Virus record (IMG/VR): IMGVR_UViG_3300044468_000011
Span: 1 to 59,275 of that record
DNA length: 59,275 bases
Direction: 5' to 3' (one strand)
DNA from: a virus
Taxonomy: Duplodnaviria > Caudoviricetes
Shown here piece by piece: positions 3,841 through 43,918 of this stretch. The position numbers and the translations under genes were made by a program. The notes beneath the pieces are model-generated. The model saw nothing but the letters and a program-made list of their open reading frames with translations. It had not been told where the DNA came from and searched no databases. Within the stretch, counting starts at the first letter, position 1. Every line of letters starts with the position of its first letter.

Positions 3841-3914
3841 CGCGGGGTAGAGCAGCCCGGTAGCTCGCTGGGTTCATGACCCGGAGGTCGCCGGTTCGAA
3901 TCCGGCCCCCGCTA
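3841..3914 (+). tRNA. tRNA-fMet (CAT), initiator type
   Basis: Cloverleaf; C1:T72 mismatch, GGG/CCC anticodon stem, loop TT-CAT-GA, T-loop TTCGAAT; CCA not encoded. Confidence 0.93.
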
Positions 3915-4410
3915 TGCCCGGTGTGGGCTTAAGCGCACCAACGCGAACCCGGGCGCGCAGAACCGGCAGGGTGGCCACCCTGTAGCGGCGGGCCTTCGGC
4001 GGCCGCCGCCTCGCCGGACGGGTACCGTCGCCAACCTTCATCACTGCCGTGGTGTAAATCGGAAGTCCCCGCCGGCAGCAACCAACTTCGAGCCGGACCA
4101 GCGATTCAGTTCATTGGGAAGGCCGATGCCAGTGGCAGGTAAAGCCCGCCGCGCCCGAGGGCGCTGACCGAGCGGACGCTGCCTGCCCGCTTCTTCCTGA
4201 AGCTACCGAGGAGGCGACCCAGCGTCGATCCAGTGGTAGCCACTCCCCCGCGCCCGTGCCGCCCGGGGTGAGGTATAGGCACGCGGAAGCCTCTGCGGGG
4301 GCGACCGTAATCAACACAGGCGAGAGGCCAGTCGCGCCCCTCAGGCGCTCGCCGTCCATACCTGACCGTCGCGGCGAAAGGGCGCCGCTCGCGACGGTGC
4401 CAACTTCGAA
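3915..4410 (+). ncRNA. Candidate structured ncRNA(s) between tRNA-fMet and tRNA-Arg
   Basis: No credible ORF; back-to-back nested helices (GCCCGG/CCGGGC, GGCAGGTA/TGCCTGCC, GCTACC/GGTAGC, CCCCCGC/GCGGGGG, ACCGTCGCG/CGCGACGGT). Confidence 0.5.
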
Positions 4411-4484
4411 ACGCCGGTAGCTCAGCACGGTAGAGCGGCTCCCTCCTAAGGAGCAGGGCGCGGGTTCGGATCCCGCCCGGCGTA
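4411..4484 (+). tRNA. tRNA-Arg (CCT)
   Basis: ACGCCGG/CCGGCGT acceptor, GCTC/GAGC D-stem, GCTCC-CTCCTAA-GGAGC, GCGGG-TTCGGAT-CCCGC. Confidence 0.93.
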
Positions 4485-4550
4485 CTGGACCCGCAGCCTC
4501 GTCACCTCGTGTATCCGGGGGCCATGCGGGTCTGCCCATTCGCATCCCCA

Positions 4551-4621
4551 GGGGGCGGGCGCCGGTCGAGTCGGCTGGTCTCCAAAGCCAAGCCGCCGAG
4601 GTTCGATTCCTCGCGCCCCCG
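4551..4621 (+). tRNA. tRNA-Trp (CCA), atypical D-arm
   Basis: GGGGGCG/CGCCCCC acceptor, G73, loop CT-CCA-AA, CGAGG-TTCGATT-CCTCG; weak anticodon stem. Confidence 0.75.
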
Positions 4622-4704
4622 TTGGACCACCGTGACCTCGCCCGCAGTCATGAGCCGCAAGGCGCTGATCGGGCAGGCCGGTGGCCGCTTCAACCAACTC
4701 ACCC

Positions 4705-4774
4705 CGCCGTAGCCAAGTGGCGCGGCGACTCACGACCCCGGCGAGCAAGTGCTGCGCCGAAGGAGGCAAGAGCC
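4705..4774 (+). promoter_or_regulatory. AAGN-tetraloop hairpin triplet 1
   Basis: GCC-AAGT-GGC, AGC-AAGT-GCT, GGC-AAGA-GCC around the AAGGAGG RBS. Confidence 0.55.
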
Positions 4775-4778
4775 CCCG

Positions 4779-4982
4779 ATGTCCCTCTTAATCGCCCTGA
4801 TCCTCGACATCTACTTCCTGGTGCAGAGCATCGGCCACAATGATCCCGGATGGGCGGCGGCCTTCGCCTTTGCTCCGGGGATCGCGATCGGCAAGGTGAT
4901 GACGGTCGCCTACCGTCGAGGAACCATCCTCCGCCTCGAACGTGAACTCGCTGCCCAGCGCGAGTGGGATGAGGAGGACTGA
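4779..4982 (+). CDS. Small membrane protein
   Basis: AAGGAGG upstream; two hydrophobic segments. Confidence 0.7.
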   Translation: MSLLIALILDIYFLVQSIGHNDPGWAAAFAFAPGIAIGKVMTVAYRRGTILRLERELAAQREWDEED

Positions 4983-5359
4983 TGAAACGCTGGCATCGGG
5001 AGCTAGCTGGAGTCGGCTTCGACCTGAGGCGGTTCTACGCGCGCAACCGTATCCTCCGCCTGTGGGTCGGATCGCTTGCGGTCTTCATCTGGCTGAGGGC
5101 AGGCGATATCAGCGGAGGAGTCGCCTCGCGCCGCGCATCCCTCAACTGGAATCTGCGCTGGAACGCCCAGTGGAGTCACCCTGGCGCGGGCGGGAAGCTC
5201 GTGCCCCAACCTCGATACATCCTCTGGCTCCGGCTCGGCGCGCTCTTGATGCCCGAATACGACCGTCGCACCCACCGCCACTGGAACTGGTCCAAGGGCA
5301 TCCGCGAGCTGATCGACATGCGCCCGTTCGGGTTCTTCCTTGAGGGGGCAGCGGTATGA
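4982..5359 (+). CDS. Hypothetical protein
   Basis: GGAGGA RBS; TGATG coupling. Confidence 0.65.
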   Translation: MKRWHRELAGVGFDLRRFYARNRILRLWVGSLAVFIWLRAGDISGGVASRRASLNWNLRWNAQWSHPGAGGKLVPQPRYILWLRLGALLMPEYDRRTHRHWNWSKGIRELIDMRPFGFFLEGAAV

Positions 5360-5709
5360 GCGCCGCGATCGTGCTTACCCCAGAGGAAGCTCTACGCGTC
5401 ATCAGCGAAGCCCCCGACGCTGCAGACAAGACCCCGGCGGACCTGATCGAGGCAGCAGAAGACTTCGAGCGCCAAGCCGACCGCAAGGACCGCCTCTCGC
5501 CACGGAACGCGGGCGGCACCCGCGCCAAGGCCCGAGCTAAGTCCAGGGAGCGCAAGGGAGACCGCTTACGCCTTCAGGCCCAGGTCTGCCGATCAGCAGC
5601 CTCAGAGATCGAAGCCCGCGACTGCCCGAACGTCGGGGAGGCGAGCAGGAGCGCCGTGGTGCGGGCGATGCGCCGGGCGCTCAGGCGGCAGGGGGGTGAG
5701 GCAGCGTGA
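5356..5709 (+). CDS. Hypothetical protein
   Basis: ATGA overlap; helical composition. Confidence 0.7.
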   Translation: MSAAIVLTPEEALRVISEAPDAADKTPADLIEAAEDFERQADRKDRLSPRNAGGTRAKARAKSRERKGDRLRLQAQVCRSAASEIEARDCPNVGEASRSAVVRAMRRALRRQGGEAA

Positions 5710-5918
5710 ACCGCATGCAGGTCAGCCTTGCCCGCAAGAAGGCCATCGAGTCGGTAGCCGAGGAAGAGTTCGACCTGCACCATGGGCGAGACATGTACGG
5801 GTCAGCTTGGGTGAGCGCCACGGACGCACAGCGCAAGGCAGCTATCGAAATCACCACCGAGACGTTGGAGCGCTTGGAGGCCGCCGTTGGCTGTCGTCTT
5901 GGGGAGGCTCTGCCATGA
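5706..5918 (+). CDS. Hypothetical protein
   Basis: Coupled overlaps at both ends. Confidence 0.65.
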   Translation: MNRMQVSLARKKAIESVAEEEFDLHHGRDMYGSAWVSATDAQRKAAIEITTETLERLEAAVGCRLGEALP

Positions 5919-6505
5919 GCCCGCCCCGCTGTACCGGGAAGCGCAAGGACGGCAAGCCCTGCACGGCCTTCCCTAAGAAGGGAACCGACCGATGCGGGCG
6001 CCATCCGCGCGATGACGCGCCTGACACTCCATCCCCCGCGCGTGAAGAGACGCCGCGCCCCGAGCGCTGGAACCGCGACCACTGGCTCGACACCTTCCGC
6101 TGGTGCGGGATGGTCTCGATGACCTGCGAGCTGATGGGGATCTCCCGCCAGACCGCCTACGCCGAGCGCCAGCGAAACGAAGACTTCGCCGTCGCCTGGG
6201 CCGACATCGAGGAAGAGACGACCGAGGCGATGGAGCGCGAGGCCTACCGCCGCGCCGTCGAGGGAGTTACCACCCCGATGGTCTCGGCGGGCAAGCACGT
6301 CACCGATGTGCAGAACTACAGCGATCGCCTCCTGGAGTTCATGCTGAAGTCCCGTCGCCCCGAGAAGTACCGCGACCGTGTCGATGTGAACCACTCCGGG
6401 AAGGTCGAGAAGAAGGTCAAGCTCGATCTCGGCAAGCTGAGTGAGGAGGAGCTGGAGAACCTTGGGCAGATCCTCGACAAGCTCGATGAGCCGACGACCG
6501 CCTAG
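5915..6505 (+). CDS. terS: Terminase small subunit
   Basis: CTGKRKDGKPC..CGRH Zn motif, HTH GISRQTAY, EAYRRAVEG..YSDRLLEFMLK..PEKY; precedes TerL. Confidence 0.88.
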   Translation: MSPPRCTGKRKDGKPCTAFPKKGTDRCGRHPRDDAPDTPSPAREETPRPERWNRDHWLDTFRWCGMVSMTCELMGISRQTAYAERQRNEDFAVAWADIEEETTEAMEREAYRRAVEGVTTPMVSAGKHVTDVQNYSDRLLEFMLKSRRPEKYRDRVDVNHSGKVEKKVKLDLGKLSEEELENLGQILDKLDEPTTA

Positions 6506-6508
6506 CGT

Positions 6509-8038
6509 GTGCTCACCCGGCTCCCCTCCCGCGACGAACTGACGGTCGAGCGCTGTAGGCGTCGGCTCTCCACCTACATCCGGGAGGCGTGGCCGATCGT
6601 CGAGCCCGCCACGCCCTTGGTCTACGGCTGGCACATCGACACGGTCTCCGAGCACCTGGAAGCGGTCGGTCGGGGGGAAATCAAGCGATTGATCATCAAC
6701 GTCCCGCCGCGGACCATGAAGAGCCTGACGAGCTGCGTCTTCTGGCCTTCCTGGGAATGGTTGAGAGCGCCGGAGACGCGCTGGCTCTTCGCGTCGTACG
6801 CAGAGAACTTCGCCCACCGCGACAGCCTCAAGATGCGCCGGGTCATCCGCAGCGCGGGGGGCAGCGAAGAGGGCACGATCTTCCAGCGGCTCGGCTACCA
6901 GGGCGTCCTCTCGCTGCTCTCAGACGAGCCCTGGGAGCTGACCAAGGACCAAGACGCGAAGTCCCGCTACGACAACACGGCGGCGGGGATGCGACTGGCG
7001 ACCGGTGTGCGCGGTCAGGCCACGGGCGAGGGCGGCGACCGAATCGTGGTCGACGACCCGCTCTCGGCCAAGCAGGCGCGCTCAGACGCCGACCGGGAGT
7101 TCGCGAACACGTGGTGGGACGAGACGATGTCCACCCGGTTCAACAACGACCGAGCGGCTGCGGTGATCGTGATGCAGCGCCTCCACGAGGAGGATCTGAC
7201 TGGGCACCTGCTGGAGAAGGGTGGCTGGCACCACCTCTGCCTCCCGGCCGAGTACGAGCCCTCGCACCCCTTCGTCTACCCCGAGCGCGCCGAGCTTCCC
7301 TCCGGGAAAGAGATCCCCGGGGACCCTCGCACCGAGGAGGGAGAGCTGCTCGACGCCGAGCGCCTCGGCACCAAGCGCCTCAACGAGCTTCTGCGGGACC
7401 TCGGCTCCTATGGCTATGCCGGGCAAATGCAGCAGCGCCCCGCACCCCTGGAGGGCGGGATGTTCAAGCGGAGCTCGTGGCAGCGCTGGGAAACCCATCC
7501 GCCCTTCGAGCGCGTCGTCGCCTCCTGGGACATGCGCTTTTCCGACAGTCAGGAGGCGGCTTCCAGCTATGTCGTCGGTCAGGTCTGGGGGGTCCACGGG
7601 GCCAACCACTTCCTTCTCGCGCAGATCCGGGCGCGCCTGAGCTTCACCGAGACGCTAAAGGCGGTGCAGGCTCTCGATGACTTCCGCCGAGCCCCGGCGA
7701 AGCTGATCGAGAAGAAGGCCAACGGGGCTGCGGTGATGGACACGCTGAAGGCGAAGATCCCAGGCCTGATCCCGATCGAGCCCGAGGGCGGCAAGGAGGT
7801 GCGCGCCGCAGCGGTGGAACCGACCGTCGAGGCCGGGAACGTCTACTTGCCAGAAACCGAGTACATCCCCGCGCCACCCGGCTACGAGATGACCCGCGTA
7901 GACGACTTCATTTCCGAGCATGCGGTCTTCCCTAACGGCGCCCATGACGACCAGGTCGACGCGATGAGCCAAGCGCTCAACTGGATCGCAAGCGCTCCGG
8001 GCCCCGCCTCCAGCACCAAGAACCACCCGTGGCGCTGA
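6509..8038 (+). CDS. terL: Terminase large subunit
   Basis: Walker A NVPPRTMKS, Walker B IVVDD, MQRLHEED, nuclease SWD and HDDQVDA. Confidence 0.96.
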   Translation: MLTRLPSRDELTVERCRRRLSTYIREAWPIVEPATPLVYGWHIDTVSEHLEAVGRGEIKRLIINVPPRTMKSLTSCVFWPSWEWLRAPETRWLFASYAENFAHRDSLKMRRVIRSAGGSEEGTIFQRLGYQGVLSLLSDEPWELTKDQDAKSRYDNTAAGMRLATGVRGQATGEGGDRIVVDDPLSAKQARSDADREFANTWWDETMSTRFNNDRAAAVIVMQRLHEEDLTGHLLEKGGWHHLCLPAEYEPSHPFVYPERAELPSGKEIPGDPRTEEGELLDAERLGTKRLNELLRDLGSYGYAGQMQQRPAPLEGGMFKRSSWQRWETHPPFERVVASWDMRFSDSQEAASSYVVGQVWGVHGANHFLLAQIRARLSFTETLKAVQALDDFRRAPAKLIEKKANGAAVMDTLKAKIPGLIPIEPEGGKEVRAAAVEPTVEAGNVYLPETEYIPAPPGYEMTRVDDFISEHAVFPNGAHDDQVDAMSQALNWIASAPGPASSTKNHPWR

Positions 8039-11434: not shown

Positions 11435-11521
11435 GGAGCGAGTCCGGCAGGACGAGGAGCGCGCCCGCTAAGCGCGTAGGGCGACCGTGTCGCCTTCGGG
11501 GTTCGAGTCCCTGTCGCTCCG
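11435..11521 (+). tRNA. tRNA-Ser (GCT), C at position 33
   Basis: GGAGCGA/TCGCTCC acceptor, G73, long variable arm GGGCGAC/GTCGCCT, CGCGC-CCGCTAA-GCGCG, T-loop TTCGAGT. Confidence 0.85.
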
Positions 11522-11700
11522 CTAGGCACGCGCCACTGTGTGCGCGGCCAGGGCAGGTGGAGCCTCGCCACGAGGCGCGGGGAGTCCGGACCCTCCACTT
11601 GCCCGACGTCTTCCAGCGCTATAGCTCGCTTGGATCGCGATCCGGCGTTGGTAGTCCGCATCGGCCCCTGCTCCCGGTGCGGAGAACTTCGAATACAGGC

Positions 11701-30870: not shown

Positions 30871-32631
30871 ATGCCCGCAACCCTCGGCTCGGGCACCTAC
30901 GGCTCGGGCACCTACGGAGGAGCCGACGGGAAAATCAAAGGCCCCCGGATCGCGATGGGGCGGGAGTACCCGCCCGACGATCTCGCTCTGCGGATCGACC
31001 CGCCGAAGGGCGCACCTGCTCGCTGGGCCGCCGATGAGCCTTTGGCGGAGAACGTCGCGAGCGATATCCGCCTGGTCGACGAGATGCCCGGTGGGGACAA
31101 GGAAGGCTCGACGGTCCTTGCCCGCGACCCCCGTCAGGACTACCCGGATCTGGCCCCCTTCAGCACGATCTCGGTCTACGGTCCTGGAGTAGAGGAGGTC
31201 GCGAACTACCGGCTCGACAAGACGCCGCAGTCAGACGGTGACCGGATCGCGATCACTTCCGAGGCGGTCGGCTGGTCGAAGGCTCTGGAAGACAACAAGG
31301 GGCTGATTGGGCCGGGCTTCATTGACGGCGACTTCTCCAAGTTCACCGACCCGCCTATCCAGCGCCGTATTCGCCTCATCGAACTTGGCCGCAAGCTCGT
31401 GGCGAGCTTTACGACCGGTTTCCAAGGGGGGGGCGAAAGCGATGCGGCGGCGCTCGTCTTCGAGTTCCTCGGCTCGGCATTGGCCGCCGGCAATGGCCTC
31501 GGCGAGGCCTGGCGACCCAGCGATGAGGTAGCGATCGGCCGAATCCTCTACGACTACAGGCAGCTCTCTTCCTGGGCGGCTCCCGACTCGAAATGGCGGA
31601 ACCGAATTTACGGGTCCAAGGACGCGGGCGGAGTGGAAGTGTCGGGCGGAACCGACCACCAGCACCAAGACGCGAGTTTCGCCAGTCTCGACATCGAAGG
31701 CGACGACTACTTCTACGCGTTTATCGAAAACATCCGCGAAGAAGCACTCGGCGGTGAATGGCAGAACGCCGACAGCTGGTCGAATATCAAGATCCTGGGG
31801 CGCCATGGTCTCGCCTTGCAGGGAGCGTGGCCCGAAGTCGGTTTCACCGTGGCGCAGATGCTCGCGTGGGCGATCCCGCGGTTCACCGTCCTCGAGGCCC
31901 GCCCCGAAGACCTTGAAGACACCGGATACATCGTGCAGCAGGCCTGGTTCTCAGATCCCGGTCCCATGTCCCAGGTAGTCCAAGAGCTCACCAAATACGA
32001 GCTGCTCGATTGGTTCGTCTTCGGCGACCGGCGCTTCAAGCTGAAGCGGCCCGGGACCTACGGGCGGCGCTGGCAGGCCTACTCGGGACCGTCGGGGCTT
32101 GAGGAAATCGGCTTCGACGCCGACCGCTGCTGGAAGGAAATCCTCGTCACCGGCCAGGACGTGGACGGCAGGCAGATCTCCGTCGGCCCGATCGGCTCGG
32201 GTGCGACGGTCGAATCCGACGCCCTTGAAATCACCGACCCCGACCACCCGGCAGTGCGGGCGGCCGAAGAGTACGGGCCGAATTTCCTGCGGCGCGACCG
32301 CCTCTCCCTGAGGGGGATCAGCACCCCGGCCCGGATGATCGAAGCAGGGGAAGTCTGGCTGCGGGAAGCCAACCAGCTCGACCGCTCCGGGCAATGCGCC
32401 CTCTCGGGGTATGCGATGGACGACCGGGGGATCATGCGCCCTGTCTCACAGATCCGCGCCGGGGACCAAGTCCGGTTCCCCGACGCAGGGGACACGAGCT
32501 ACAGGCGGATCGTCCGTCGCTCTTACGAGCACTCGGCCCGCACGGCGCAGCTCGACCTGGACGCGCCCCCTGAAGCGGTGCAAGCCCTGCTGGAGCGGCT
32601 TGATGCGTCGATCCAGTCCCTAGCCCTGTGA
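30871..32631 (+). CDS. Minor tail/hub protein
   Basis: Size and position; IRAGDQVRF near C-terminus. Confidence 0.8.
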   Translation: MPATLGSGTYGSGTYGGADGKIKGPRIAMGREYPPDDLALRIDPPKGAPARWAADEPLAENVASDIRLVDEMPGGDKEGSTVLARDPRQDYPDLAPFSTISVYGPGVEEVANYRLDKTPQSDGDRIAITSEAVGWSKALEDNKGLIGPGFIDGDFSKFTDPPIQRRIRLIELGRKLVASFTTGFQGGGESDAAALVFEFLGSALAAGNGLGEAWRPSDEVAIGRILYDYRQLSSWAAPDSKWRNRIYGSKDAGGVEVSGGTDHQHQDASFASLDIEGDDYFYAFIENIREEALGGEWQNADSWSNIKILGRHGLALQGAWPEVGFTVAQMLAWAIPRFTVLEARPEDLEDTGYIVQQAWFSDPGPMSQVVQELTKYELLDWFVFGDRRFKLKRPGTYGRRWQAYSGPSGLEEIGFDADRCWKEILVTGQDVDGRQISVGPIGSGATVESDALEITDPDHPAVRAAEEYGPNFLRRDRLSLRGISTPARMIEAGEVWLREANQLDRSGQCALSGYAMDDRGIMRPVSQIRAGDQVRFPDAGDTSYRRIVRRSYEHSARTAQLDLDAPPEAVQALLERLDASIQSLAL

Positions 32632-34977: not shown

Positions 34978-36606
34978 ATGCGGCGGACTCCGGCTGCGTT
35001 CCTCGTGGCCTTCCTCATCATGCTCGGCCTGGGCACCTCGCACGCGAGCGCCTGGGAGAACGGCAAAGCCCCGGCATCGGCAATGTCGCCGATCGCGACC
35101 ACCGTGAAGTGCGACCCGCTTCAGGGCCAGCTCGCCAACGAGGCGGCGGCGGGGTGGAACACGATGGCGCTCGCTGCCGGCGAACGTCTGGCGATCAACG
35201 GCTGCGACTCGGCCTACCGGCCCTATGACCGCCAGGTCTACATGAAGAACTACTGGTGCGCGCTGGGCGCGTGTCAGAACGCGGCCACCCCCGGCTACTC
35301 AAACCACGGCTGGGGCCTCGCCACCGACAACCCGACTACGACCCTCGGCTACATCGCCCTTCACGGCAAGCGGTTCGGCTGGTGCAAGTGCTGGTCGGAT
35401 GCGCCGTGGGAGAGCTGGCATGTCACCTACCGCGACGTCTTCAACCGGCCGAACCCCGGCCCCAATCTCCACTCGCCGACGCTGCGCCAGCACTCCGGCG
35501 GCCCTGGCCAGAACGTCTACGTCCGCAAGGTGCAGAAGCTCCTTCGCGGCCACGGCGACAAGACCGTCACGGTCGATGGCTCTTTCGGCTGGCAGACCCG
35601 CAAGGCGGTCGAACGCTTCCAGCGGGCCCAGCGGCTGAAGGTCAACGGCGTCGTCTCCAAGCGGGTGTGGAAGCGTCTGCGCCGCCCGATCTCCAAGCCG
35701 GTGAAGACGACCCCCGTCCACGTCGCGCCCGCCGGCACCGCTCCACCTCCGGCCAAGCCCCACCACAAAAAGAAGCACCACCAGGCTCCGAAGAACCGCA
35801 AGGCGTGGGGGATCGACATCAGCTCGAACAACGGGTGCCCGGCGACCGGGAATCCGGCGATCAACTTCAGGAAGGTCCGCCGCGACGGCGCCACCTTCGC
35901 GATCACGAAGTCGACTGAGAGCACCACCTACGTCAACCCGTGCTTCGGCCGCGCTCAGGTGCGGGCGATCGGTTCGGCCGGCCTGGTCCCCGGCGTCTAC
36001 CACTGGCTTACCCCGGGCGGCGCATCGGGCAAGGCCGAGGCCGCCTTCTTCGCCAACACGATCGGCCACGCCGGTTACGGCAAGGGGTTCCTGCAGCCCT
36101 TCGTCGATGTGGAGGAGCACAGCGGGATCTCCAGCGCGGCCTACTGCCGGGAGCTCGGCGAATTCGTCCACACCCTGAAGCGGGTCCTGGGCGAGAAGCC
36201 GATCATCTACTCGACGCCCAGCTTCGTCACCGACGAACTCGGCGGGGCCGCCTGCGGCTACCTCGACCACTACCGCCTCTGGATCGCCCACCTCGGCGTG
36301 AGGCACCCCGACGTGCCTGCGCCGTTCGGGAGCTGGGCGCTCTGGCAGTACACCTGGACCGCCCACGTCGCCGGGGTTCCAGGTGAGGTCGATGTCAGCA
36401 AGGTCTACGGGGGGACCAGGGCGCTCGCAACGCTCCGCGTTCGCGACCTCCCGCGCCGGGTTCGCAAAGCGCCGCGGGCGAAGCTCGAGTTGCCGCTTGC
36501 GGCTGAGTCCCGGGGGCGGTTGCTGAAGGCGGCGCCCGATAACCCGCATCCCCCGGCGGCAGATGCCACGCCGCCGGGGTCCACCGCCGATGAAGGGGGG
36601 TCCTGA
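34978..36606 (+). CDS. Endolysin: signal peptide, M15 peptidase, PG_binding_1 and GH25 muramidase
   Basis: SHASA/W cleavage site; SNHGWGLATD..ESWH; VDGSFGWQTRKAVERFQ; GIDISS..DVEE..WQYT. Confidence 0.93.
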   Translation: MRRTPAAFLVAFLIMLGLGTSHASAWENGKAPASAMSPIATTVKCDPLQGQLANEAAAGWNTMALAAGERLAINGCDSAYRPYDRQVYMKNYWCALGACQNAATPGYSNHGWGLATDNPTTTLGYIALHGKRFGWCKCWSDAPWESWHVTYRDVFNRPNPGPNLHSPTLRQHSGGPGQNVYVRKVQKLLRGHGDKTVTVDGSFGWQTRKAVERFQRAQRLKVNGVVSKRVWKRLRRPISKPVKTTPVHVAPAGTAPPPAKPHHKKKHHQAPKNRKAWGIDISSNNGCPATGNPAINFRKVRRDGATFAITKSTESTTYVNPCFGRAQVRAIGSAGLVPGVYHWLTPGGASGKAEAAFFANTIGHAGYGKGFLQPFVDVEEHSGISSAAYCRELGEFVHTLKRVLGEKPIIYSTPSFVTDELGGAACGYLDHYRLWIAHLGVRHPDVPAPFGSWALWQYTWTAHVAGVPGEVDVSKVYGGTRALATLRVRDLPRRVRKAPRAKLELPLAAESRGRLLKAAPDNPHPPAADATPPGSTADEGGS

Positions 36607-37725: not shown

Positions 37726-37869
37726 CCCGGGCTTCCCCTCCGAGTTAGTGGATTTGCGTTCAAGCATCTTATCCCCTGGCCGGATGCCTTATGCAACCCA
37801 TCCGATTCACGGTACGAGCGTGGCTTCGTCTTGACAATCGATGATTGGTTGAGCATTCTTCCCGGCCGC

Positions 37870-38697
37870 ATGTCTCAAGTCCAACCTTCGGATGCCCGCG
37901 TCGCCTACGACGCGATGGCCCCGATCTACGACGAGTTCAACGCGGGGAACAACTACGAGCTCTGGCTTGGTGAGGTGCTGCTGCCGGAGTTGGAGAAGTA
38001 CGGTCTCCGCCGGCCCGGCCGGGCGTTGGATCTCGGCTGCGGCACCGGGAGAGCCTTCGAGCCCCTGCTTCGCCGGCGGTGGTCGGTATGGGGGGTAGAT
38101 GCCTCCGAGCGGATGCTGGAGCAGGCGAGGGAGAAGCTGCCGGATGCCTGGGGCTACATCGGGGAGGTCGAGCTGCGCCAGCATGATGCCCGGGATTTGC
38201 CCACGTTCGAGCGGCCCTCGAAACTCGGCGGGCCCCATCGGGTTCGCTTCGATCTCATCATCGCTTTGAACGACGTCGTCAACTACCTGACCGAGGACGG
38301 CGATCTCGAGCGGGTCTTCTCCGGCATGAAGGCGAACCTTTGGGAGGACGGGCTGGTCTGCTTCGACGCAACCTCCCTCGCCGTCTTCCACGGCTCCTAC
38401 ACACATTCTGGCGGGAGTTCGTCCCTGAGCGATCGGGGCTGGCAGTGGTTGGGGCTAACGGATCGGGCTGAACCCGGGGGTCTCTTCGAGGCCGAACTAT
38501 CCGGGGTCGACGTCGAGCCCCACGTGCATCGCCTACGTCATTGGCCGCGGGAGCAGATAGAAGCCGCTATGGGGGCGGCCGGGCTCCAGTGTCTCGCCGC
38601 CTTGGGCCAACGTGAGGAGGGGCGGAGCCTGATCCTGGAGGAGCCCGACGAGTCGGTCCATGAACGGACGATCTACATCGGGGGGCATCGTGGGTAG
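37870..38697 (+). CDS. Class I SAM-dependent methyltransferase (small-molecule/peptide type)
   Basis: YDAMAPIYD, LDLGCGTG, GVDASERML, FDLI..DVVNY; TTGACA-N17-CATTCT promoter at 37831-37859. Confidence 0.92.
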   Translation: MSQVQPSDARVAYDAMAPIYDEFNAGNNYELWLGEVLLPELEKYGLRRPGRALDLGCGTGRAFEPLLRRRWSVWGVDASERMLEQAREKLPDAWGYIGEVELRQHDARDLPTFERPSKLGGPHRVRFDLIIALNDVVNYLTEDGDLERVFSGMKANLWEDGLVCFDATSLAVFHGSYTHSGGSSSLSDRGWQWLGLTDRAEPGGLFEAELSGVDVEPHVHRLRHWPREQIEAAMGAAGLQCLAALGQREEGRSLILEEPDESVHERTIYIGGHRG

Positions 38698-38728
38698 CCG
38701 GGCCGACCTCGTTGACGGTCGGCCCGGC
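38697..38728. terminator. Hairpin between the convergent methyltransferase and peptide genes
   Basis: Perfect 12-bp inverted repeat GCCGGGCCGACC/GGTCGGCCCGGC. Confidence 0.75.
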
Positions 38729-38736
38729 CAAGAGGC

Positions 38737-38796
38737 TCAGGTCCCCTTGGAAGTGCTGAGGGCCGGGTACTGGCTCGGCGCAGTCGCGATCTTCAA
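38737..38796 (-). CDS. 19-aa peptide MKIATAPSQYPALSTSKGT
   Basis: AAGGGAGGTGA SD with 8 nt from GGAGG to TTG; TGA followed directly by the hairpin; fills the intergenic space. Confidence 0.65.
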   Translation of the reverse strand: MKIATAPSQYPALSTSKGT

Positions 38797-38837
38797 ATCG
38801 GTCACCTCCCTTCCCAGGCAGTCGGATCGGGTCAAGC

Positions 38838-39452
38838 ATGGGCGCTGAGGCGGACGGCAAGATCACGCCGAGGAGTGCGGCGCCCTACCTCCCGCCGGCC
38901 CTCCACGGTGTACTCGCCAACGAGCTCCGGCACGAGATTCTCATGCGCTGCGGCGAACGACCCTGGAGCGCGACGGAATTGGCGGAGGCTTTAGAACAAC
39001 CTCGCCGGAGAATCACCGACCAGATCGAAGAACTAAAGAAGCTTGACCCGCCCTTGCTGGAGTGCGTCGGCAAGAAGCCCAGCCCGAAAGGCGGGTCGAT
39101 GTTCATGTACAAGGCCGCGCGCTTTATCTTCAACACGGAGGAGTGGGACCAGCTCTCGCCGGTCGAACAGGCTGTCTCTTCCGCCAACATTGTGAAGCTG
39201 GTCACGGAAGAGTTGGCACGCGGGATTCGGGATGGCACCCTCTACAACACCAGCGATCACTACCTGCTTCGGGATCGCCAGATGGTCGATCGACAAGCAA
39301 TGGCCGAAATCAGGGAACTTCTCGACGAAGCGCATGATCGTTTCGTCGGCATCGCCACCACCGCCACCCAGCGGCTGGAGTCCTCCGGGGAGCGGCCGAT
39401 CCCCATCACGCTGGCCCTGGTATCCGGCGAGGTCGCCCCCAAAGGGCGCTGA
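38838..39452 (+). CDS. ArsR-like winged-HTH regulator with C-terminal domain
   Basis: LANELRHEILMRCGERPWSATELAEAL..LLECV; ~100-aa C-terminal domain. Confidence 0.85.
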   Translation: MGAEADGKITPRSAAPYLPPALHGVLANELRHEILMRCGERPWSATELAEALEQPRRRITDQIEELKKLDPPLLECVGKKPSPKGGSMFMYKAARFIFNTEEWDQLSPVEQAVSSANIVKLVTEELARGIRDGTLYNTSDHYLLRDRQMVDRQAMAEIRELLDEAHDRFVGIATTATQRLESSGERPIPITLALVSGEVAPKGR

Positions 39453-39784
39453 GGAGTACACCGAAAAAATCCGGGTCTTGACGGACCCCACTCAGTGCCG
39501 TTGACTGCACGAAAAGGTCGTCGTAATGGAGCGACGCCGACTATGAACGCGGGGGTACTGAGAGGTGCGCGACGTCAGGGGGGAAGGTGCTGGGCGAGTC
39601 GATGGAAGCGGGGCCGAACGTGGAGCGCGTGGTGATCTGGCCGATGATCACGATTCCTCCCCTAGAGCGCTTGGCCCCGCTTCGATCGAGCAGCCTACCC
39701 CTGAGCCTGACGAATTCGACCGCGCTAAGCGCATCGCCGACTACCTGCACCGGCAGGCGGCGATGATGCCACTCGACTCCCCCC

Positions 39785-40275
39785 TTAGGGCTTTGGCCCT
39801 TCGGGAGTCAGATCGATGGGCGACCATTTCGGGGACCCGCCCACTTCGTCTTCGTTCATTGCCTGGATCGCGTACTTCCGCATCTGGTCAGACAGGAAGT
39901 TCAGGCGATCCTCAACCTGCTGCCAGCGAGCCTCTTCGTCCAGTGATTTAGCAAGGGAATCCACCAGCTGGCTGATTCGGTCGACCCGGCTTTCTAGGGC
40001 ACGTAGGCCATCGAGGAAGTCGCCTTCGGCTGCGAGCATCTCGCCTTCCCCCGAGATGATCCACTCCGGGTTGGCGCCGTAGACGCGGGCGAGGGCATGC
40101 ACCGACGGCAGGCCGATCACGTCGCCCTTCTCCCAGTTCCGAAGGGCCGCTGCGCTTTTGCCGGCGGCCTCCGCTGCCTGCGTTTTACCGAGCCTCGCGA
40201 CCTCTTCGCGAAGGCGTACCAGGCGCTTGCCGCGCTCGCTATCGGGGGGAAGTCCTTCGGGTGGAATGGCGCCAC
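39785..40275 (-). CDS. XRE/CI-like immunity repressor (start problematic)
   Basis: Frame of 39785-40120 stays open upstream to 40276 and encodes RGKRLVRLREE..KTQAAEAAGKSAAALRNWEKG..LARVYGANPEWIISGEG. Confidence 0.8.
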
Positions 40276-40331
40276 TTTAAATGGTTGAACAAGGCTAAGT
40301 GCCCAGCATGCGTAAACAATACGCGTCGTTC

Positions 40332-40359
40332 TTGACATGCGCAAGAATTGCGCTACAGT
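40332..40359 (+). promoter_or_regulatory. Early rightward promoter, leaderless-type
   Basis: TTGACA-N16-TACAGT-N6-ATG. Confidence 0.75.
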
Positions 40360-40365
40360 TGCGCT

Positions 40366-40545
40366 ATGCAAGCAACCGAGAAGGCAATTACCTTCCGCGT
40401 CCCGGGCGATCTGAAAGAGAAGTTCCGGGCCGCCGCTGAAGCTGAGAACCGGAGCATCGCCGGGTCGCTCCGCAACCTCATGGAGAAACGAGTGGCCGAG
40501 TTCGAGGGCGAGGAGCATCTCCCCGCCGCCGGAAAGGCGGCATAG
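40366..40545 (+). CDS. Arc/ribbon-helix-helix regulator in the Cro position
   Basis: ITFRVPGDLKEKFRAAAEAENRSIAGSLRNLM. Confidence 0.88.
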   Translation: MQATEKAITFRVPGDLKEKFRAAAEAENRSIAGSLRNLMEKRVAEFEGEEHLPAAGKAA

Positions 40546-40549
40546 AGCG

Positions 40550-40978
40550 ATGGCGACCGCGACCGCCGTCAAGAGTTTCGCCGAGCTCCCACTGCTCTTC
40601 GGGCAGGACGCCCCGGTTATGCGCGAGATACGAGCACAGCGGAGCGTCGACGCTTTTCTCGAAGTGGGGCGCAACGAGCCCTTCCGCGACGTGCTTCGCC
40701 GCGACCCCTGCGCCTACTGCGGTGCGCCGATCGGTGGCACGCTGGATCACATCGAGGCTCGGGCCACCGGTGGCCGCGACGAACTCGCCAACCTCACCGG
40801 CTCCTGCGCGAACTGCAACACCCGAAAGGGGATGCGGTCCCTCCTGGCATTTCTTGCCGGCTCCTTCCGGTTCGCCGGGACGCCGCAGCGGCGGGTGGAC
40901 CAGATGGTCTACAGCGCCGCCTTTCGCAACGGCCGGATCGTCAGCACGCAGTTCAAGTCGACCCGGAGGACGCTCTAA
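40550..40978 (+). CDS. HNH endonuclease
   Basis: CAYCG..DHI..NLTGSCANCNTRKG. Confidence 0.9.
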   Translation: MATATAVKSFAELPLLFGQDAPVMREIRAQRSVDAFLEVGRNEPFRDVLRRDPCAYCGAPIGGTLDHIEARATGGRDELANLTGSCANCNTRKGMRSLLAFLAGSFRFAGTPQRRVDQMVYSAAFRNGRIVSTQFKSTRRTL

Positions 40979-41764: not shown

Positions 41765-42231
41765 CCCACCGAGACTTCCAACAAAAACGCGCCCGCGACG
41801 GTGGAACGTCCGGGCGCCTGAGCCAAGGAGACGAGTCCATGGCTGTACGGAGTGTAAGAGACGAACCGACGATCGAGGAGTTGATCGAGGCACGGGAGCG
41901 CGCCGAGGTTCTCGAGGCCGCCGATGACGGGCGACTGGTTGACCTCGCCATGTACAGGGCGCTCCGTGGCCCGGCCCGGGAGATCGACCACGACGACGAC
42001 GAGAACCCGCCGATCGATGCCGTCGCTCGGGAGCGGGCAGAAGACGAGGTCGCCGAGCTGCACGGGCGGATCTCCGAGGCAGAATCGGTCTTGAACTGGC
42101 TGGCCGGATTCGTCGGCGAGGAGGGGCCCGGATCTGCCGCCGTCAACTCGGCGGGGATCAAGCTCGGGGAAGTGCGCGAGCAGCTCCCTGTGATCCGTCA
42201 GGCGGTTCGAGATATGGAGCAGGACTCGTGA
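41761..42231 (+). CDS. Hypothetical protein
   Basis: ATGA overlap; acidic helical. Confidence 0.65.
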   Translation: MTHRDFQQKRARDGGTSGRLSQGDESMAVRSVRDEPTIEELIEARERAEVLEAADDGRLVDLAMYRALRGPAREIDHDDDENPPIDAVARERAEDEVAELHGRISEAESVLNWLAGFVGEEGPGSAAVNSAGIKLGEVREQLPVIRQAVRDMEQDS

Positions 42232-43088
42232 GCGCGAAGAACGGCACGGAGGTCATTAAGCCGCCGGACCGGACTCCGCTTATGCGGCGAGACCCGGTGC
42301 AGCTTGCCCAGCACTTCCTCGCGTCGGGCTTCTTTGCCGATGTGACGGACCTGAGCAAAGCGGTGGTGAAGATCGTCGCCGGCGAAGAGCTGGGCCTTGG
42401 GCCGATGGCCGCGATGCGCGGGATCTACATCATCGAAGGCAAGCCCAGCCTCTCGTCAAACCTCATGGCCGCACTGGTCAAACGGTCTCCGGCCTACGAC
42501 TACCGCGTAACCGAGCACACCGGTGAGAAGTGCGTGATCTCCTTTCTTCAGGACGGAAAGGAGGTTGGGACCTCGGAATTCACGATTGCCCAAGCCCGCG
42601 AGATCAAGACGAAGGAGGGGGGCAAGTGGATTCCGCTGGCAGACACCGCTCGCTGGAAGCAGTACCCCAAAGCGATGCTGTTCGCCCGTGCCCTCTCGCA
42701 GGGCGTCCGCTGGTACTGCCCGGACCTGATGTCGGGCGCCCCCGCCTACACGCCGGAGGAGTTGGGGGCGATGGTCAACGCACAGGGGGAAGTAGTCCAT
42801 GTTCCCGCTGAAGTTGAAGTCGAGAAGCCGACCAAGCTCGACGACGCCCGGGTCGCCCACCTGGTCGAAGGCATCGAGATCGTCAAACCCGCCCTCGCCG
42901 AAAACGGGGCCGATTGGATCGACGGCTTCAACGTGATGCTCGGCTCACTGGGAATCGACGGCTTCGAGCCCGCCGATGACCTCACCGCTCAACTGTCCAA
43001 TTTGAGTGAGGACGACGCCGACAAGATCGACCAGGCCCTTCAGGCCCTCGCCGACGAGGAGGCCGAGAAGGCGGAGGCGGCCTCCTGA
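42228..43088 (+). CDS. RecT/Redbeta-like ssDNA-annealing recombinase
   Basis: GEELGLGPMAAMRGIYIIEGKP..WKQYPKAMLFARA..YTPEE. Confidence 0.85.
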   Translation: MSAKNGTEVIKPPDRTPLMRRDPVQLAQHFLASGFFADVTDLSKAVVKIVAGEELGLGPMAAMRGIYIIEGKPSLSSNLMAALVKRSPAYDYRVTEHTGEKCVISFLQDGKEVGTSEFTIAQAREIKTKEGGKWIPLADTARWKQYPKAMLFARALSQGVRWYCPDLMSGAPAYTPEELGAMVNAQGEVVHVPAEVEVEKPTKLDDARVAHLVEGIEIVKPALAENGADWIDGFNVMLGSLGIDGFEPADDLTAQLSNLSEDDADKIDQALQALADEEAEKAEAAS

Positions 43089-43918
43089 TGGCGACGAAGC
43101 AGAAGACGCCGCCGACCTCAGTCGAGATCCTCCCCAACGGGACCAAGATCGAATTTTGGGACAAAGTCGACGCCGAGGGCAACGAGCAGAAACGCCGATA
43201 CATGGTGGACGGTGCCCGGTTCGTCAACGTCACCACGGTCCTCGACGTGCTCGCGAAGGAGGCACTGCTCGACTGGGCGGCGCGGCTCGCTCGCGAAGGC
43301 AAGAACTGGCGAGTGGTCCGCGCTGAAGCGGGCGAGCGAGGAAGTGTCTCCCACCATCTGCTGCTGCAACTGCTGACCGGGCAGGGCGCGACCCTCGCCG
43401 ACCTCGCCCCCGAGCATCGTCCCTACGGGCAGGCCGGGTTCAAATTCGTCCACGGTCGAAAGCCGAAGGTCATCGAGTGCGAGCGGATGGTCGCTTCGCC
43501 CGAGCACGGCTACGCCGGCCGCCTTGATCTCTTCACCGAGCTCGACGAAACCCTCACCCTCGTCGACTTCAAGACCGTCACCGCCTGGGCCTACGAAAAG
43601 GACCAGGACGGCAACGAGACCGACAAGGTCTACCCACCCTTCACCGAGAACCTGCTCCAGCTCGACCTCTACCAGGGCGCCCGGTTGGAGTGCGGGTTGC
43701 CCCCGGCAGAGCGCGGGCTGATCGTTCGTCTCGGCCCCGACGCCGAAGTTCTGGAGACGCCGGTGCCCCTCGACCCCGAACGAGGTGTGGCGATCCTCAA
43801 GGCATATCGCGCCAAGGCGGACGCGCGGAAGGTGCTCAAGGCCGCCGCGTCCGCCGAGTACAGCCGTCTGAAGCTCGACCGCGAGATCGAGCAGCAGTGT
43901 CAGGCGGTGGGTCTCTGA
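43088..43918 (+). CDS. PD-(D/E)xK exonuclease
   Basis: VTTVL..G...H..YAGRLDL..LVDFKT..QLDLY. Confidence 0.88.
   Translation: MATKQKTPPTSVEILPNGTKIEFWDKVDAEGNEQKRRYMVDGARFVNVTTVLDVLAKEALLDWAARLAREGKNWRVVRAEAGERGSVSHHLLLQLLTGQGATLADLAPEHRPYGQAGFKFVHGRKPKVIECERMVASPEHGYAGRLDLFTELDETLTLVDFKTVTAWAYEKDQDGNETDKVYPPFTENLLQLDLYQGARLECGLPPAERGLIVRLGPDAEVLETPVPLDPERGVAILKAYRAKADARKVLKAAASAEYSRLKLDREIEQQCQAVGL

Follow-up and report, generated by a model that had tools for sequence, protein, structure and literature searches.

What is encoded in the 140-bp gap between a methyltransferase gene and a winged helix-turn-helix (wHTH) regulator gene of the IMG/VR provirus record IMGVR_UViG_3300044468_000011? 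The window analyzed here is this whole stretch of DNA (59,275 bp, GC content ~65%, genes mostly on the plus strand). A preliminary description, made from the letters alone, had proposed that the gap hides a small peptide gene which forms a peptide-signalling module with its two neighbors. The small open reading frame (ORF) at 38796-38737 is a genuine conserved gene, with conservation at the protein level. We lean towards reading its product as a precursor of the RiPP type (a ribosomally made peptide that is modified after translation) that has its own regulator, carried by the provirus where its lysis and early genes meet.

A conserved 19-codon gene lies in the gap

The gap spans 38698-38837, between the methyltransferase stop codon (TAG, 38695-38697) and the wHTH start codon (ATG, 38838). 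The minus-strand ORF, its extended Shine-Dalgarno (SD) sequence and a perfect 12-bp hairpin shared with the convergent methyltransferase gene were all located as the preliminary description had placed them:

37870-38697, plus strand: class I S-adenosylmethionine (SAM)-dependent methyltransferase, 275 aa; its family recurs beside peptide/wHTH modules
38697-38728, no strand: GC-rich hairpin without a T-run, separating the methyltransferase gene from the convergent peptide gene
38737-38796, minus strand: 19-codon peptide gene, TTG start at 38796-38794, TGA stop at 38739-38737, product (M)KIATAPSQYPALSTSKGT
38797-38837, no strand: divergent control region, 41 bp, peptide start to wHTH start
38802-38812, minus strand: extended SD AAGGGAGGTGA, 5 nt from the TTG
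38838-39452, plus strand: ArsR-type winged-helix regulator, 204 aa, with a helical C-terminal half that may be Phr/PH1932-like

The M given earlier for the product stands for the TTG start, and KIATAPSQYPALSTSKGT denotes the residues after the initiator. The automatic ORF list holds a longer mechanical frame at the same place (38835-38737, 32 aa). The arms of the inverted repeat (38697-38708 and 38717-38728) are 12 nt long, 100% complementary and separated by an 8-nt loop, and the repeat overlaps the methyltransferase stop codon. As RNA, the hairpin reaches -32.8 kcal/mol (z = -5.4), which none of 200 shuffles equals; it is likely a bidirectional terminator for the methyltransferase and peptide genes. 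Rfam gave no match at E<=1 over 38400-39100. In the 41-bp control region, neither an inverted repeat of >=8 nt nor a sigma-70-like site was found. The wHTH gene lacks an SD and has a conserved TCAAG ahead of its ATG.

A 19-codon ORF on its own is not beyond chance, since this 65% GC DNA holds 102 mechanical ORFs of >=20 aa in 7.5 kb; its conservation is. Close relatives of the wHTH protein are few, only 8 in a set of 5.8 billion proteins. Six metagenome loci encode such a relative; L005 was left out for its foreign upstream DNA, and L002 equals L003 over the printed stretch. All five distinct loci (the window, L002/L003, L004, L006 and L007) have an opposite-strand ORF of exactly 19 codons, located 41-107 nt upstream of the wHTH start; in all five it follows a GGAGGTGA SD, opens with TTG and closes with TGA. 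L007 keeps this ORF although its wHTH protein is only 33% identical. Among the five copies the N-terminal half of the peptide varies freely, and the conserved half, P-x-L/I-S-x-S/T-K, shows synonymous changes (TCC/TCG/TCA, ACT/ACC, CTC/CTA). The homologue scan suggested in the preliminary description, for SD-led antisense ORFs with a conserved C-terminus and a neighboring methyltransferase, succeeded at 5/5 loci for the ORF; the methyltransferase was missing from 2/5.

The five copies were used to derive a DNA pattern in which the SD, the start and stop codons, Pro11, Lys17 and parts of three other codons are held constant. It matches once in the window, against 0 matches in 100 shuffles, and retrieves 98 stretches from one-genome-per-species reference contigs, nearly all of them from metagenome-assembled genomes of Solirubrobacterales. 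The 80 titled rows among these comprise 67 Solirubrobacterales, 11 other actinobacterial labels (Thermoleophilaceae, Conexibacteraceae, 'Actinomycetes', 'Actinomycetota'), 1 Chloroflexota and 1 archaeon. IMG/VR contributes 3 matching stretches, and 3 more with a TAG stop. The pattern is strict: of the roughly 14 modules in the closely checked genomes it recovers about 2, and TAG stops were excluded in the genome scan. Scanning viral contigs and reference genome contigs with a protein pattern from alignment A1 yielded no relative, and the phage database gave no match to the wHTH protein (tblastn) or to 15 kb of the window (megablast). The abundance of short ORFs in the window would suit a chance ORF in GC-rich intergenic DNA, an explanation already refuted by the conservation, the pattern matches and the pairing with wHTH genes described below, and to which we give a negligible probability. 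The hidden gene that had been proposed is real: it is conserved at the same length in all five related loci and belongs to a family present in reference genomes.

A peptide family with a constant C-terminal end

The family set comprises 109 pattern copies, 107 of them unique. The consensus of the unique copies is M-K/T-[IVL]-x6-[VLAI]-P-x-[LVI]-S-[IVT]-x-K-x-G. Several positions that the pattern left free are conserved: Ser14 in 66/107 (codons TCC 22, TCG 21, AGC 8, TCA 8, TCT 6), Gly19 in 54/107, I/V/T at position 15 in 96/107 and V/L/A/I at position 10 in 89/107. Likewise, the three bases ahead of GGAGGTGA are enriched as A-A-G, which the pattern did not require. The last residue is G in 54 peptides, R in 20, A in 9, S in 7, T in 6 and N in 3; the window peptide ends in Thr. 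A motif-free scan for GGAGG plus a short ORF upstream of wHTH paralogues returned 10 family-like ORFs of 17-20 residues. Because all 10 end in K-x-x-stop, the spacing from the Lys to the C-terminus is not an artefact of the pattern. The emphasis that the preliminary description had placed on the 'SKGT end' was well directed, as the conserved part is the C-terminal P-x-h-S-h-x-K-x-x-stop, which includes SKGT.

Each copy constitutes a mini-gene made of an extended SD, ~19 codons and a strong terminator hairpin. Over 106 copies, the mean folding energy of the 70 nt past the small ORF is -34.8 kcal/mol, compared with -23.4 for 94 controls taken 400 nt further on, and a fold of -25 kcal/mol or lower is reached by 90% of the post-ORF stretches and 37% of the controls. 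TAA is the stop codon of 41/107 family members, against 18 of the 123 TGA+TAA stops in the long ORFs of the same loci. The genes beyond the hairpin are very diverse across the family, so each copy is a stand-alone mini-gene and not the leader of a constant operon.

The taxonomic distribution points to a narrow range. The strict pattern matched 0/200 other genomes in a class-level sample and 4/120 other genomes in a sample drawn from the same GTDB family; this restricts the peptides to a subgroup of Solirubrobacterales, as judged from samples and not from a census. This subgroup and its temperate phages would be the family's home, and the window ORF would be one translated representative of a set of precursor peptides, 17-22 residues long, that is specific to this lineage. 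In two complete genomes inspected in detail there are ~10 or more copies each, and most copies are chromosomal; the module is not phage-specific.

Upstream DNA differs between subfamilies, and across 103 copies no motif at a fixed distance upstream of the SD was found. The 'MT[IV]KP...KQ[RH]' subfamily (L038, L047, L055, L064, L067, L088, L105) has a conserved 5' stretch, CCTCCTTCCCGTCCCGGC ... GCCGGGGTGACGAC...GGGAGGGAGG, about 30-75 nt upstream of the peptide start, which would pair with and hide the SD, and an AGCATA box about 123-137 nt upstream. In the 'MK[LI]AA...' subfamily (L009, L023, L033, L048, L073, L097 and others), AGTCTA is followed after ~10 nt by (T/G)AGAC and then GAAACC; this inverted repeat, which stands some 80-105 nt ahead of the peptide start, may serve as operator for the adjoining wHTH protein. 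These subfamily motifs are not present in the window clade. One genome has three family-like peptide genes in tandem within ~420 bp (G001:C1:132698-133120), beside a wHTH gene at 133502-134083.

The peptide gene is paired with an ArsR-type regulator

The wHTH protein of the window matches Pfam HTH_20 weakly (E 1.8e-4; 21.9 bits, under the 27-bit cut-off). Its AlphaFold2 model (pLDDT 83.5) shows a wHTH domain (residues 20-93) followed by two long helices (108-132 and 152-183). The top Foldseek matches in the PDB are 2p4w (E 4.3e-5), 2cwe, 1uly and 4g6q, with TM-scores to Phr, PH1932 and Kfla_6221 of only 0.32-0.43, those for Phr and PH1932 being 0.32-0.36, and identities of 13-20%; SmtB, CzrA, CadC and HlyU chains follow. 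Among 34 family members, 32 match the NCBIfam ArsR/SmtB model NF033788 at E<=0.01, and 11 match Phr_regulator at the same threshold, the window protein not being among the listed matches of the latter. Because the fold matches ArsR-type regulators, the wHTH assignment is confirmed, though the Pfam score is weak. The invariant columns of the 34-sequence alignment are R31, L66, Y91, D151 and R179; as to ligand residues for metal or thiol sensing (alpha3N or alpha5 sites), there is no invariant Cys or His.

Two peptide-receptor architectures were looked for in this protein. The model's best matches are ArsR-type regulators, with no peptide-binding domain of the tetratricopeptide repeat (TPR) type found in RRNPP and arbitrium receptors, and the HTH-XRE plus helical repeat layout of Rgg-type regulators is likewise absent. 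A role as a RiPP recognition element was considered and dropped, the sequence and fold relatives being ArsR-type DNA binders.

Genomic neighborhood analysis supports the pairing of small ORF and regulator that the preliminary description had claimed. With a hidden Markov model (HMM) of the 34 members, a divergent wHTH gene was found within 600 nt of 83/109 pattern copies. As for the other 26, 7 have a wHTH gene within 3 kb, often with a methyltransferase between, 6 lack sequence room and 13 have none (an archaeal chance match included). The wHTH family itself is large (830 representative clusters at E<=1e-3), and five complete genomes of 2.6-2.9 Mb contain 16-33 HMM matches each. In two complete genomes, a family-like small ORF lies upstream of 14/26 wHTH domains (one case read by hand). 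The wHTH protein probably binds the shared control region. With start codons 41-57 bp apart in the window clade, one bound dimer would affect both promoters.

Several irregularities of the wHTH genes were recorded along the way. Paralogues cluster (e.g., L002 2404-3642 and 3789-4367, and G001-G005), and tandem-duplicated wHTH proteins of about 420 aa are common (a 412-aa ORF and many two-stretch matches). L006, a 242-kb contig, reads ATC at 5001-5003 where the wHTH start codon would stand, and both the frame and the N-terminal motif xRVEPDGK are preserved; gene callers gave this protein, which appears as P0007 and P0008, a 70-residue upstream extension. In L005, a 1,275-bp contig, the wHTH match begins at residue 26 and the upstream DNA (1-370) encodes an unrelated periplasmic-binding-like ORF, so that the contig looks chimeric or rearranged.

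A ThiF-like adenylyltransferase and a methyltransferase are linked to the family

Neighbors within 3.5 kb of the 107 modules were clustered, with L003 and L107 dropped as duplicates and genes called by a filter on GC content at third codon positions (GC3). The recurring families were the wHTH protein (59 modules in the BLAST cluster), a small XRE family (14), the methyltransferase (13) and a ThiF-like protein (7).

The ThiF-like protein has ~355 aa with a 95-residue N-terminal extension. Its best sequence matches in the PDB are MccB (8e-34), PaaA (2.4e-29, aligned from residue 3) and ThiF (6e-27), with MoeB also behind, and its C-terminal part passes the cut-off of TIGR03882, a leader-peptide-binding model for thiazole/oxazole-modified microcins (TOMM). 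The five complete genomes encode one or two close orthologues each, and 5/6 of these loci lie within 2 kb of a peptide/wHTH module. Methyltransferase, peptide and ThiF-like genes share one cluster in L016, L019, L099, L081 and L050. The peptide gene sits between the two enzyme genes in L099, L019 and L016; in L099 all three are on the plus strand (methyltransferase 4656-5450, peptide 5450-5509, ThiF-like gene 5570-6640). In L130 it directly precedes the ThiF-like gene; L133 has the same order, with the methyltransferase gene after the ThiF-like one.

A ThiF-like orthologue is present in 23 of 121 sampled genomes of the same GTDB family, and all 5 genomes with strict pattern matches are among these 23. 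A relaxed pattern gave matches in 16 genomes; after sorting real from noise matches by eye, family-like ORFs remained in 11/23 genomes with the ThiF-like gene and 0/98 without. The matches in 5 enzyme-less genomes end in TGG, fall in a conserved glycerol-kinase-like frame or have early stops. The ThiF-like enzyme is more tightly linked to the peptide family than the methyltransferase is.

The methyltransferase matches Pfam Methyltransf_25 (E 3.1e-15; 57.1 bits, cut-off 27). Its best NCBIfam match is the daptide-type RiPP methyltransferase NF041820 (E 7.6e-11; 41.9 bits, cut-off 175), and its best PDB sequence match is 3d2l, an uncharacterized SAM methyltransferase (E 6e-12). It is 52% identical to the neighbors in L002 and L006; the copy in L002 was missed by the GC3 filter and found by other searches. 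The window order (methyltransferase, hairpin, reversed peptide gene, wHTH gene) recurs in L002/L003, L006 and L109, and elsewhere the methyltransferase family stands beside modules in several orientations. The five complete genomes contain 10 full-length copies, 6 of them within 2 kb of a wHTH-family match, where ~4% would be expected by genome coverage. The family is non-randomly linked to the modules, but to a minority of them. The methyltransferase partnership put forward in the preliminary description therefore holds in part: the linkage is real (13/107 modules; 6/10 copies near a wHTH match), and most modules lack the enzyme. Because of that absence, which includes 2/5 close loci and the related proviruses, the methyltransferase is no constant 'writer'. 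A role as a phage DNA or tRNA methyltransferase was rejected, a single PHROG match (2.3e-7) being outweighed by the chromosomal linkage to modules.

Upstream of the methyltransferase gene, a perfect TTGACA (37832-37837) stands 32 nt ahead of the ATG, and CATTCT lies 17 nt past the TTGACA. This pair, which was not listed by the sigma-70-like scan, would give the transcript a leader of a few bases. No SD precedes the methyltransferase start.

The module occupies a fixed place in related proviruses

In the window, the module is flanked by these genes and this gap:

34978-36606, plus strand: three-domain endolysin (VanY-like, PG_binding_1, GH25), 542 aa
36606-36851, plus strand: small holin-like ORF
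39453-39784: gap after the wHTH gene, 332 bp
39785-40276, minus strand: XRE-type HTH gene ('CI-like')
40348-40545, plus strand: Arc/RHH gene
40550-40978, plus strand: HNH gene
42228-43088, plus strand: RecT
43088-43918, plus strand: exonuclease

The distance of ~330 bp to the end of the CI-like gene, given in the preliminary description, agrees with a minus-strand gene that ends at 39785, 332 bp past the wHTH stop.

Two related IMG/VR proviruses share this arrangement. G008 has a tail protein 47% identical to 30871-32631 and an exonuclease 37% identical to that of the window; the tail protein of G006 is 36% identical to the window's. Both carry a peptide/wHTH pair at the window's position, between the lysis and the early/recombination genes, with wHTH alleles only 27-32% identical to the window's and with different peptides. 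A search of their loci (L106-L108) turned up no methyltransferase homologue, and in the 15-17 kb around the module there is no enzyme with a homologue among the window's genes. Peptide/wHTH pairs also occur in three further viral stretches. The closest chromosomal relatives lie among housekeeping genes and not phage genes: L006 amid G6PD, SUF and IspH, and L002 by a sugar nucleotidyltransferase.

Two further observations concern the window itself. The XRE gene matches HTH_3 (E 3.1e-6, above cut-off) only if read from the preceding stop at ~40276; its first in-frame ATG/GTG/TTG, at 40120, falls past most of HTH_3, and the gene probably has a non-canonical start (ATT and CTG are in frame) or is 5'-truncated. 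It was considered as a part of the module and dropped, since it bears no relation to the XRE family found beside 14 modules. The window also encodes four tRNAs (Met-CAT, Arg-CCT, Glu-CTC and Ser-GCT) at 3841-4621 and 11435-11522.

Proposed role and alternative explanations

The proposed role, as a RiPP-type precursor with its own regulator, draws on the linkage to the two enzymes. Because solved ThiF-like relatives activate the carboxylate of short ribosomal peptides, the peptide is most likely a RiPP-type substrate of the ThiF-like enzyme and the methyltransferase. The MccB/PaaA-like adenylyltransferase, present once or twice per host genome, would activate a carboxylate, and methylation would fall to the methyltransferase at 37870-38697. 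The invariant Lys at -3 from the C-terminus may serve as a nucleophile or as a recognition residue, which is speculation. The ArsR/Phr-type wHTH protein, encoded divergently from the peptide gene, most likely controls the shared intergenic region. On this proposal the provirus supplies the precursor, the methyltransferase and the regulator, and would rely on an adenylyltransferase of the host.

Several results weigh against this proposal. No ThiF-like gene was found in the window by tblastn, and 87/107 modules lack both enzymes within 3.5 kb. Genes for an exporter, a protease or immunity do not recur among module neighbors; nor does a transporter or acetyltransferase family, although no dedicated search for MccC or MccE/MccF was made. 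The match of the methyltransferase to the daptide model is far under its cut-off, and the separation of genomes with and without family-like ORFs involved a judgement by eye. The C-termini vary, with N in only 3/107 peptides, and microcin C chemistry is inapplicable for this reason, as it needs a terminal Asn. Finally, the one-to-one pairing of precursor and regulator is atypical of RiPP clusters and fits a signal and its receptor at least as well.

The latter arrangement is the alternative that we take most seriously, as a possible but distinctly less probable explanation. The peptide, linear or modified, would be the cognate ligand of the adjacent wHTH protein, and each module an auto-inducing circuit like shp/rgg or prgQ/prgX; in a provirus it would inform the lysis-lysogeny decision about the density of phage or host, in the manner of arbitrium. 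It overlaps with the RiPP proposal and differs from it in the purpose of the peptide. Besides the divergent one-to-one pairing, it would account for the many paralogous pairs per genome, whose peptides combine variable N-terminal halves with a constant C-terminal motif. It is favored by the phage allele pattern, in which three related proviruses (G000, G008 and G006) hold the pair at the same place as divergent alleles with differing peptides; the three further viral stretches with pairs are also in line with it. However, the regulator, an ArsR wHTH domain followed by helices, lacks any known peptide-binding domain, a signal sequence is absent from the peptide, neither exporter nor importer genes recur, and adjacency alone would make peptide and regulator co-diverge whether or not they interact. 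A combined version, in which a phage-borne allele of a host-wide peptide/ArsR-type-receptor system sets the lysis-lysogeny or superinfection decision and the 19-mer is matured by the host ThiF-like enzyme and the phage methyltransferase, seems rather unlikely on present evidence.

Could the peptide act without any modification? As an intracellular micro-protein it would be a co-repressor or anti-repressor of the wHTH protein, or bind another target, and the enzymes would be regulated cargo. Such a role would explain why most modules have neither enzyme nearby and why the genes downstream of the peptide are so diverse; the ThiF-like gene itself is divergent from a wHTH paralogue in L129, L131 and L132, as a regulated target would be. 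We nevertheless consider it improbable, because family-like peptide matches were seen only in those sampled genomes that have the ThiF-like gene, because the peptide gene directly precedes that gene or stands between it and the methyltransferase at five loci, and because the nearest solved relatives of the enzyme modify short peptides. More improbable still is that the peptide is functionless and the ORF marks a cis-acting element, such as a leader, an upstream ORF or part of a small RNA, interfering for example with the wHTH promoter 41 bp away. The promoters must overlap in the window clade given the short distance between start codons, one subfamily's conserved 5' stem would pair with the SD, and a terminator directly follows the ORF, all of which would suit such an element. 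Yet conservation is seen at the amino acid level, with both serine codon families in use and Pro and Lys invariant; the K-x-x-stop spacing is constant across variants of 17-22 aa; and nothing constant lies downstream to be attenuated, nor does Rfam offer a match.

Significance

These data reveal an unannotated family of ~19-codon genes, missed by gene callers, in common and barely studied soil actinobacteria. They connect an MccB/PaaA-like adenylyltransferase and a dedicated methyltransferase with short ribosomal peptides, in a phylum for which the literature searched holds no such RiPP, and point to new peptide chemistry around an invariant Lys-x-x-COOH end. That the peptide genes have their own ArsR/Phr-type regulators suggests either a new wiring of RiPP production or a new class of peptide-sensing receptors. 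Should the regulator prove to be a peptide receptor, especially in phages, the system would be of a new kind. With divergent phage alleles at a fixed position, peptide signalling between phage and host or between phages becomes testable outside Firmicutes. If the phage interpretation is true, it would amount to arbitrium-like communication in Actinomycetota with a wholly different peptide chemistry and receptor fold, and the dozens of chromosomal pairs would form a previously unseen peptide-signalling network.

Comparison with known systems

The closest biochemical parallels are RiPPs made by ThiF-like enzymes (microcin C with MccA/MccB/MccD, enterofaecin with EnfA/EnfB and pantocin with PaaP/PaaA). 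In enterofaecin, the C-terminal carboxylate of a 21-aa precursor is adenylated and ring-closed, and the precursors, of about 21 aa, are marked by a C-terminal WW(I/V) and a leader (V/I)RKA (PMC12250964). A microcin C variant of Bacillus amyloliquefaciens has a 19-aa MccA and an MccB with a methyltransferase-like domain (PMC12596934). Such systems share with the present family a very short precursor (7-30 aa) preceded by an SD of its own, a hairpin that separates the precursor gene from the enzyme gene and a partner of the class I methyltransferase fold; in the enterofaecin case regulator genes also lie nearby (PMC12250964, PMC12596934). The enzyme itself, of ~355 aa with an N-terminal extension and a ThiF domain, is likewise common to both.

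The differences are as clear. Microcin C precursors end in an Asn that is converted into the aspartamide-nucleotide, whereas only 3/107 peptides here end in Asn and the window peptide ends in Thr; the enzyme gene beside the precursor is missing from the window and is found, among relatives, at 7/107 modules and 5/6 enzyme loci. Neither the WW(I/V) nor the (V/I)RKA motif of enterofaecin occurs in the 107 peptides. Compared with ThiF-dependent RiPPs in general, the family belongs to Actinomycetota, has at least ten dispersed precursors per genome for one or two enzymes, provides the precursors with their own ArsR-type regulator (83/109 within 600 nt) and lacks recurring exporter or immunity genes.

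Daptides are RiPPs whose precursor has a C-terminal Thr and whose cluster includes the methyltransferase MpaM. The window resembles them in the terminal Thr of its peptide and in the daptide model being the best NCBIfam match of its methyltransferase. It differs in a score of 41.9 against a cut-off of 175 bits, in that only 6/107 peptides end in Thr, and in that no aminotransferase, decarboxylase or reductase gene was seen next to the modules. Membership in the microcin C, enterofaecin and daptide groups was dropped on the terminal Asn, the WW motif and the daptide cut-off, respectively.

With respect to gene arrangement, the nearest parallels are Rgg/SHP and PrgX/PrgQ of Firmicutes, in which a ~20-codon peptide gene is divergent from the regulator on which the peptide is thought to act, with many paralogous pairs per genome and RiPP enzymes sometimes attached. 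The short peptide gene adjoining and divergent from a regulator in 83/109 copies is like Rgg/SHP. In contrast, the regulator here is an ArsR wHTH protein with a helical tail in place of HTH-XRE plus TPR-like repeats, the peptide lacks strong hydrophobicity, partners of the PptAB/Opp type were not seen, and the phylum is another. In the arbitrium system of SPbeta-like and other Bacillus phages, AimP has ~43 aa with a signal peptide and AimR is a TPR protein. The window resembles it in a phage-borne short peptide gene beside a regulator, near the lysis-lysogeny region and with divergent alleles in related phages, and differs in a peptide of 19 aa with no hydrophobic signal stretch, a wHTH regulator and a module that is mainly chromosomal.

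For the regulator itself, the top matches by fold, at low TM-scores, are the heat-shock regulator Phr of Pyrococcus furiosus (2p4w), PH1932 (2cwe, 1uly) and Kfla_6221 (4g6q), proteins of ~190-200 aa with an ArsR wHTH domain followed by long helices, which are not known to have a small ORF partner. The literature searched, with subscription journals and supplements outside its coverage, describes neither a Solirubrobacterales system of this sort nor the pairing of small ORFs with ArsR-type regulators. By analogy, the system would act like the ThiF-dependent RiPPs and be wired like shp/rgg or prgQ/prgX, but on this comparison it belongs to none of these groups, lacking the terminal Asn, the WW motif and a receptor of the TPR or Rgg type.

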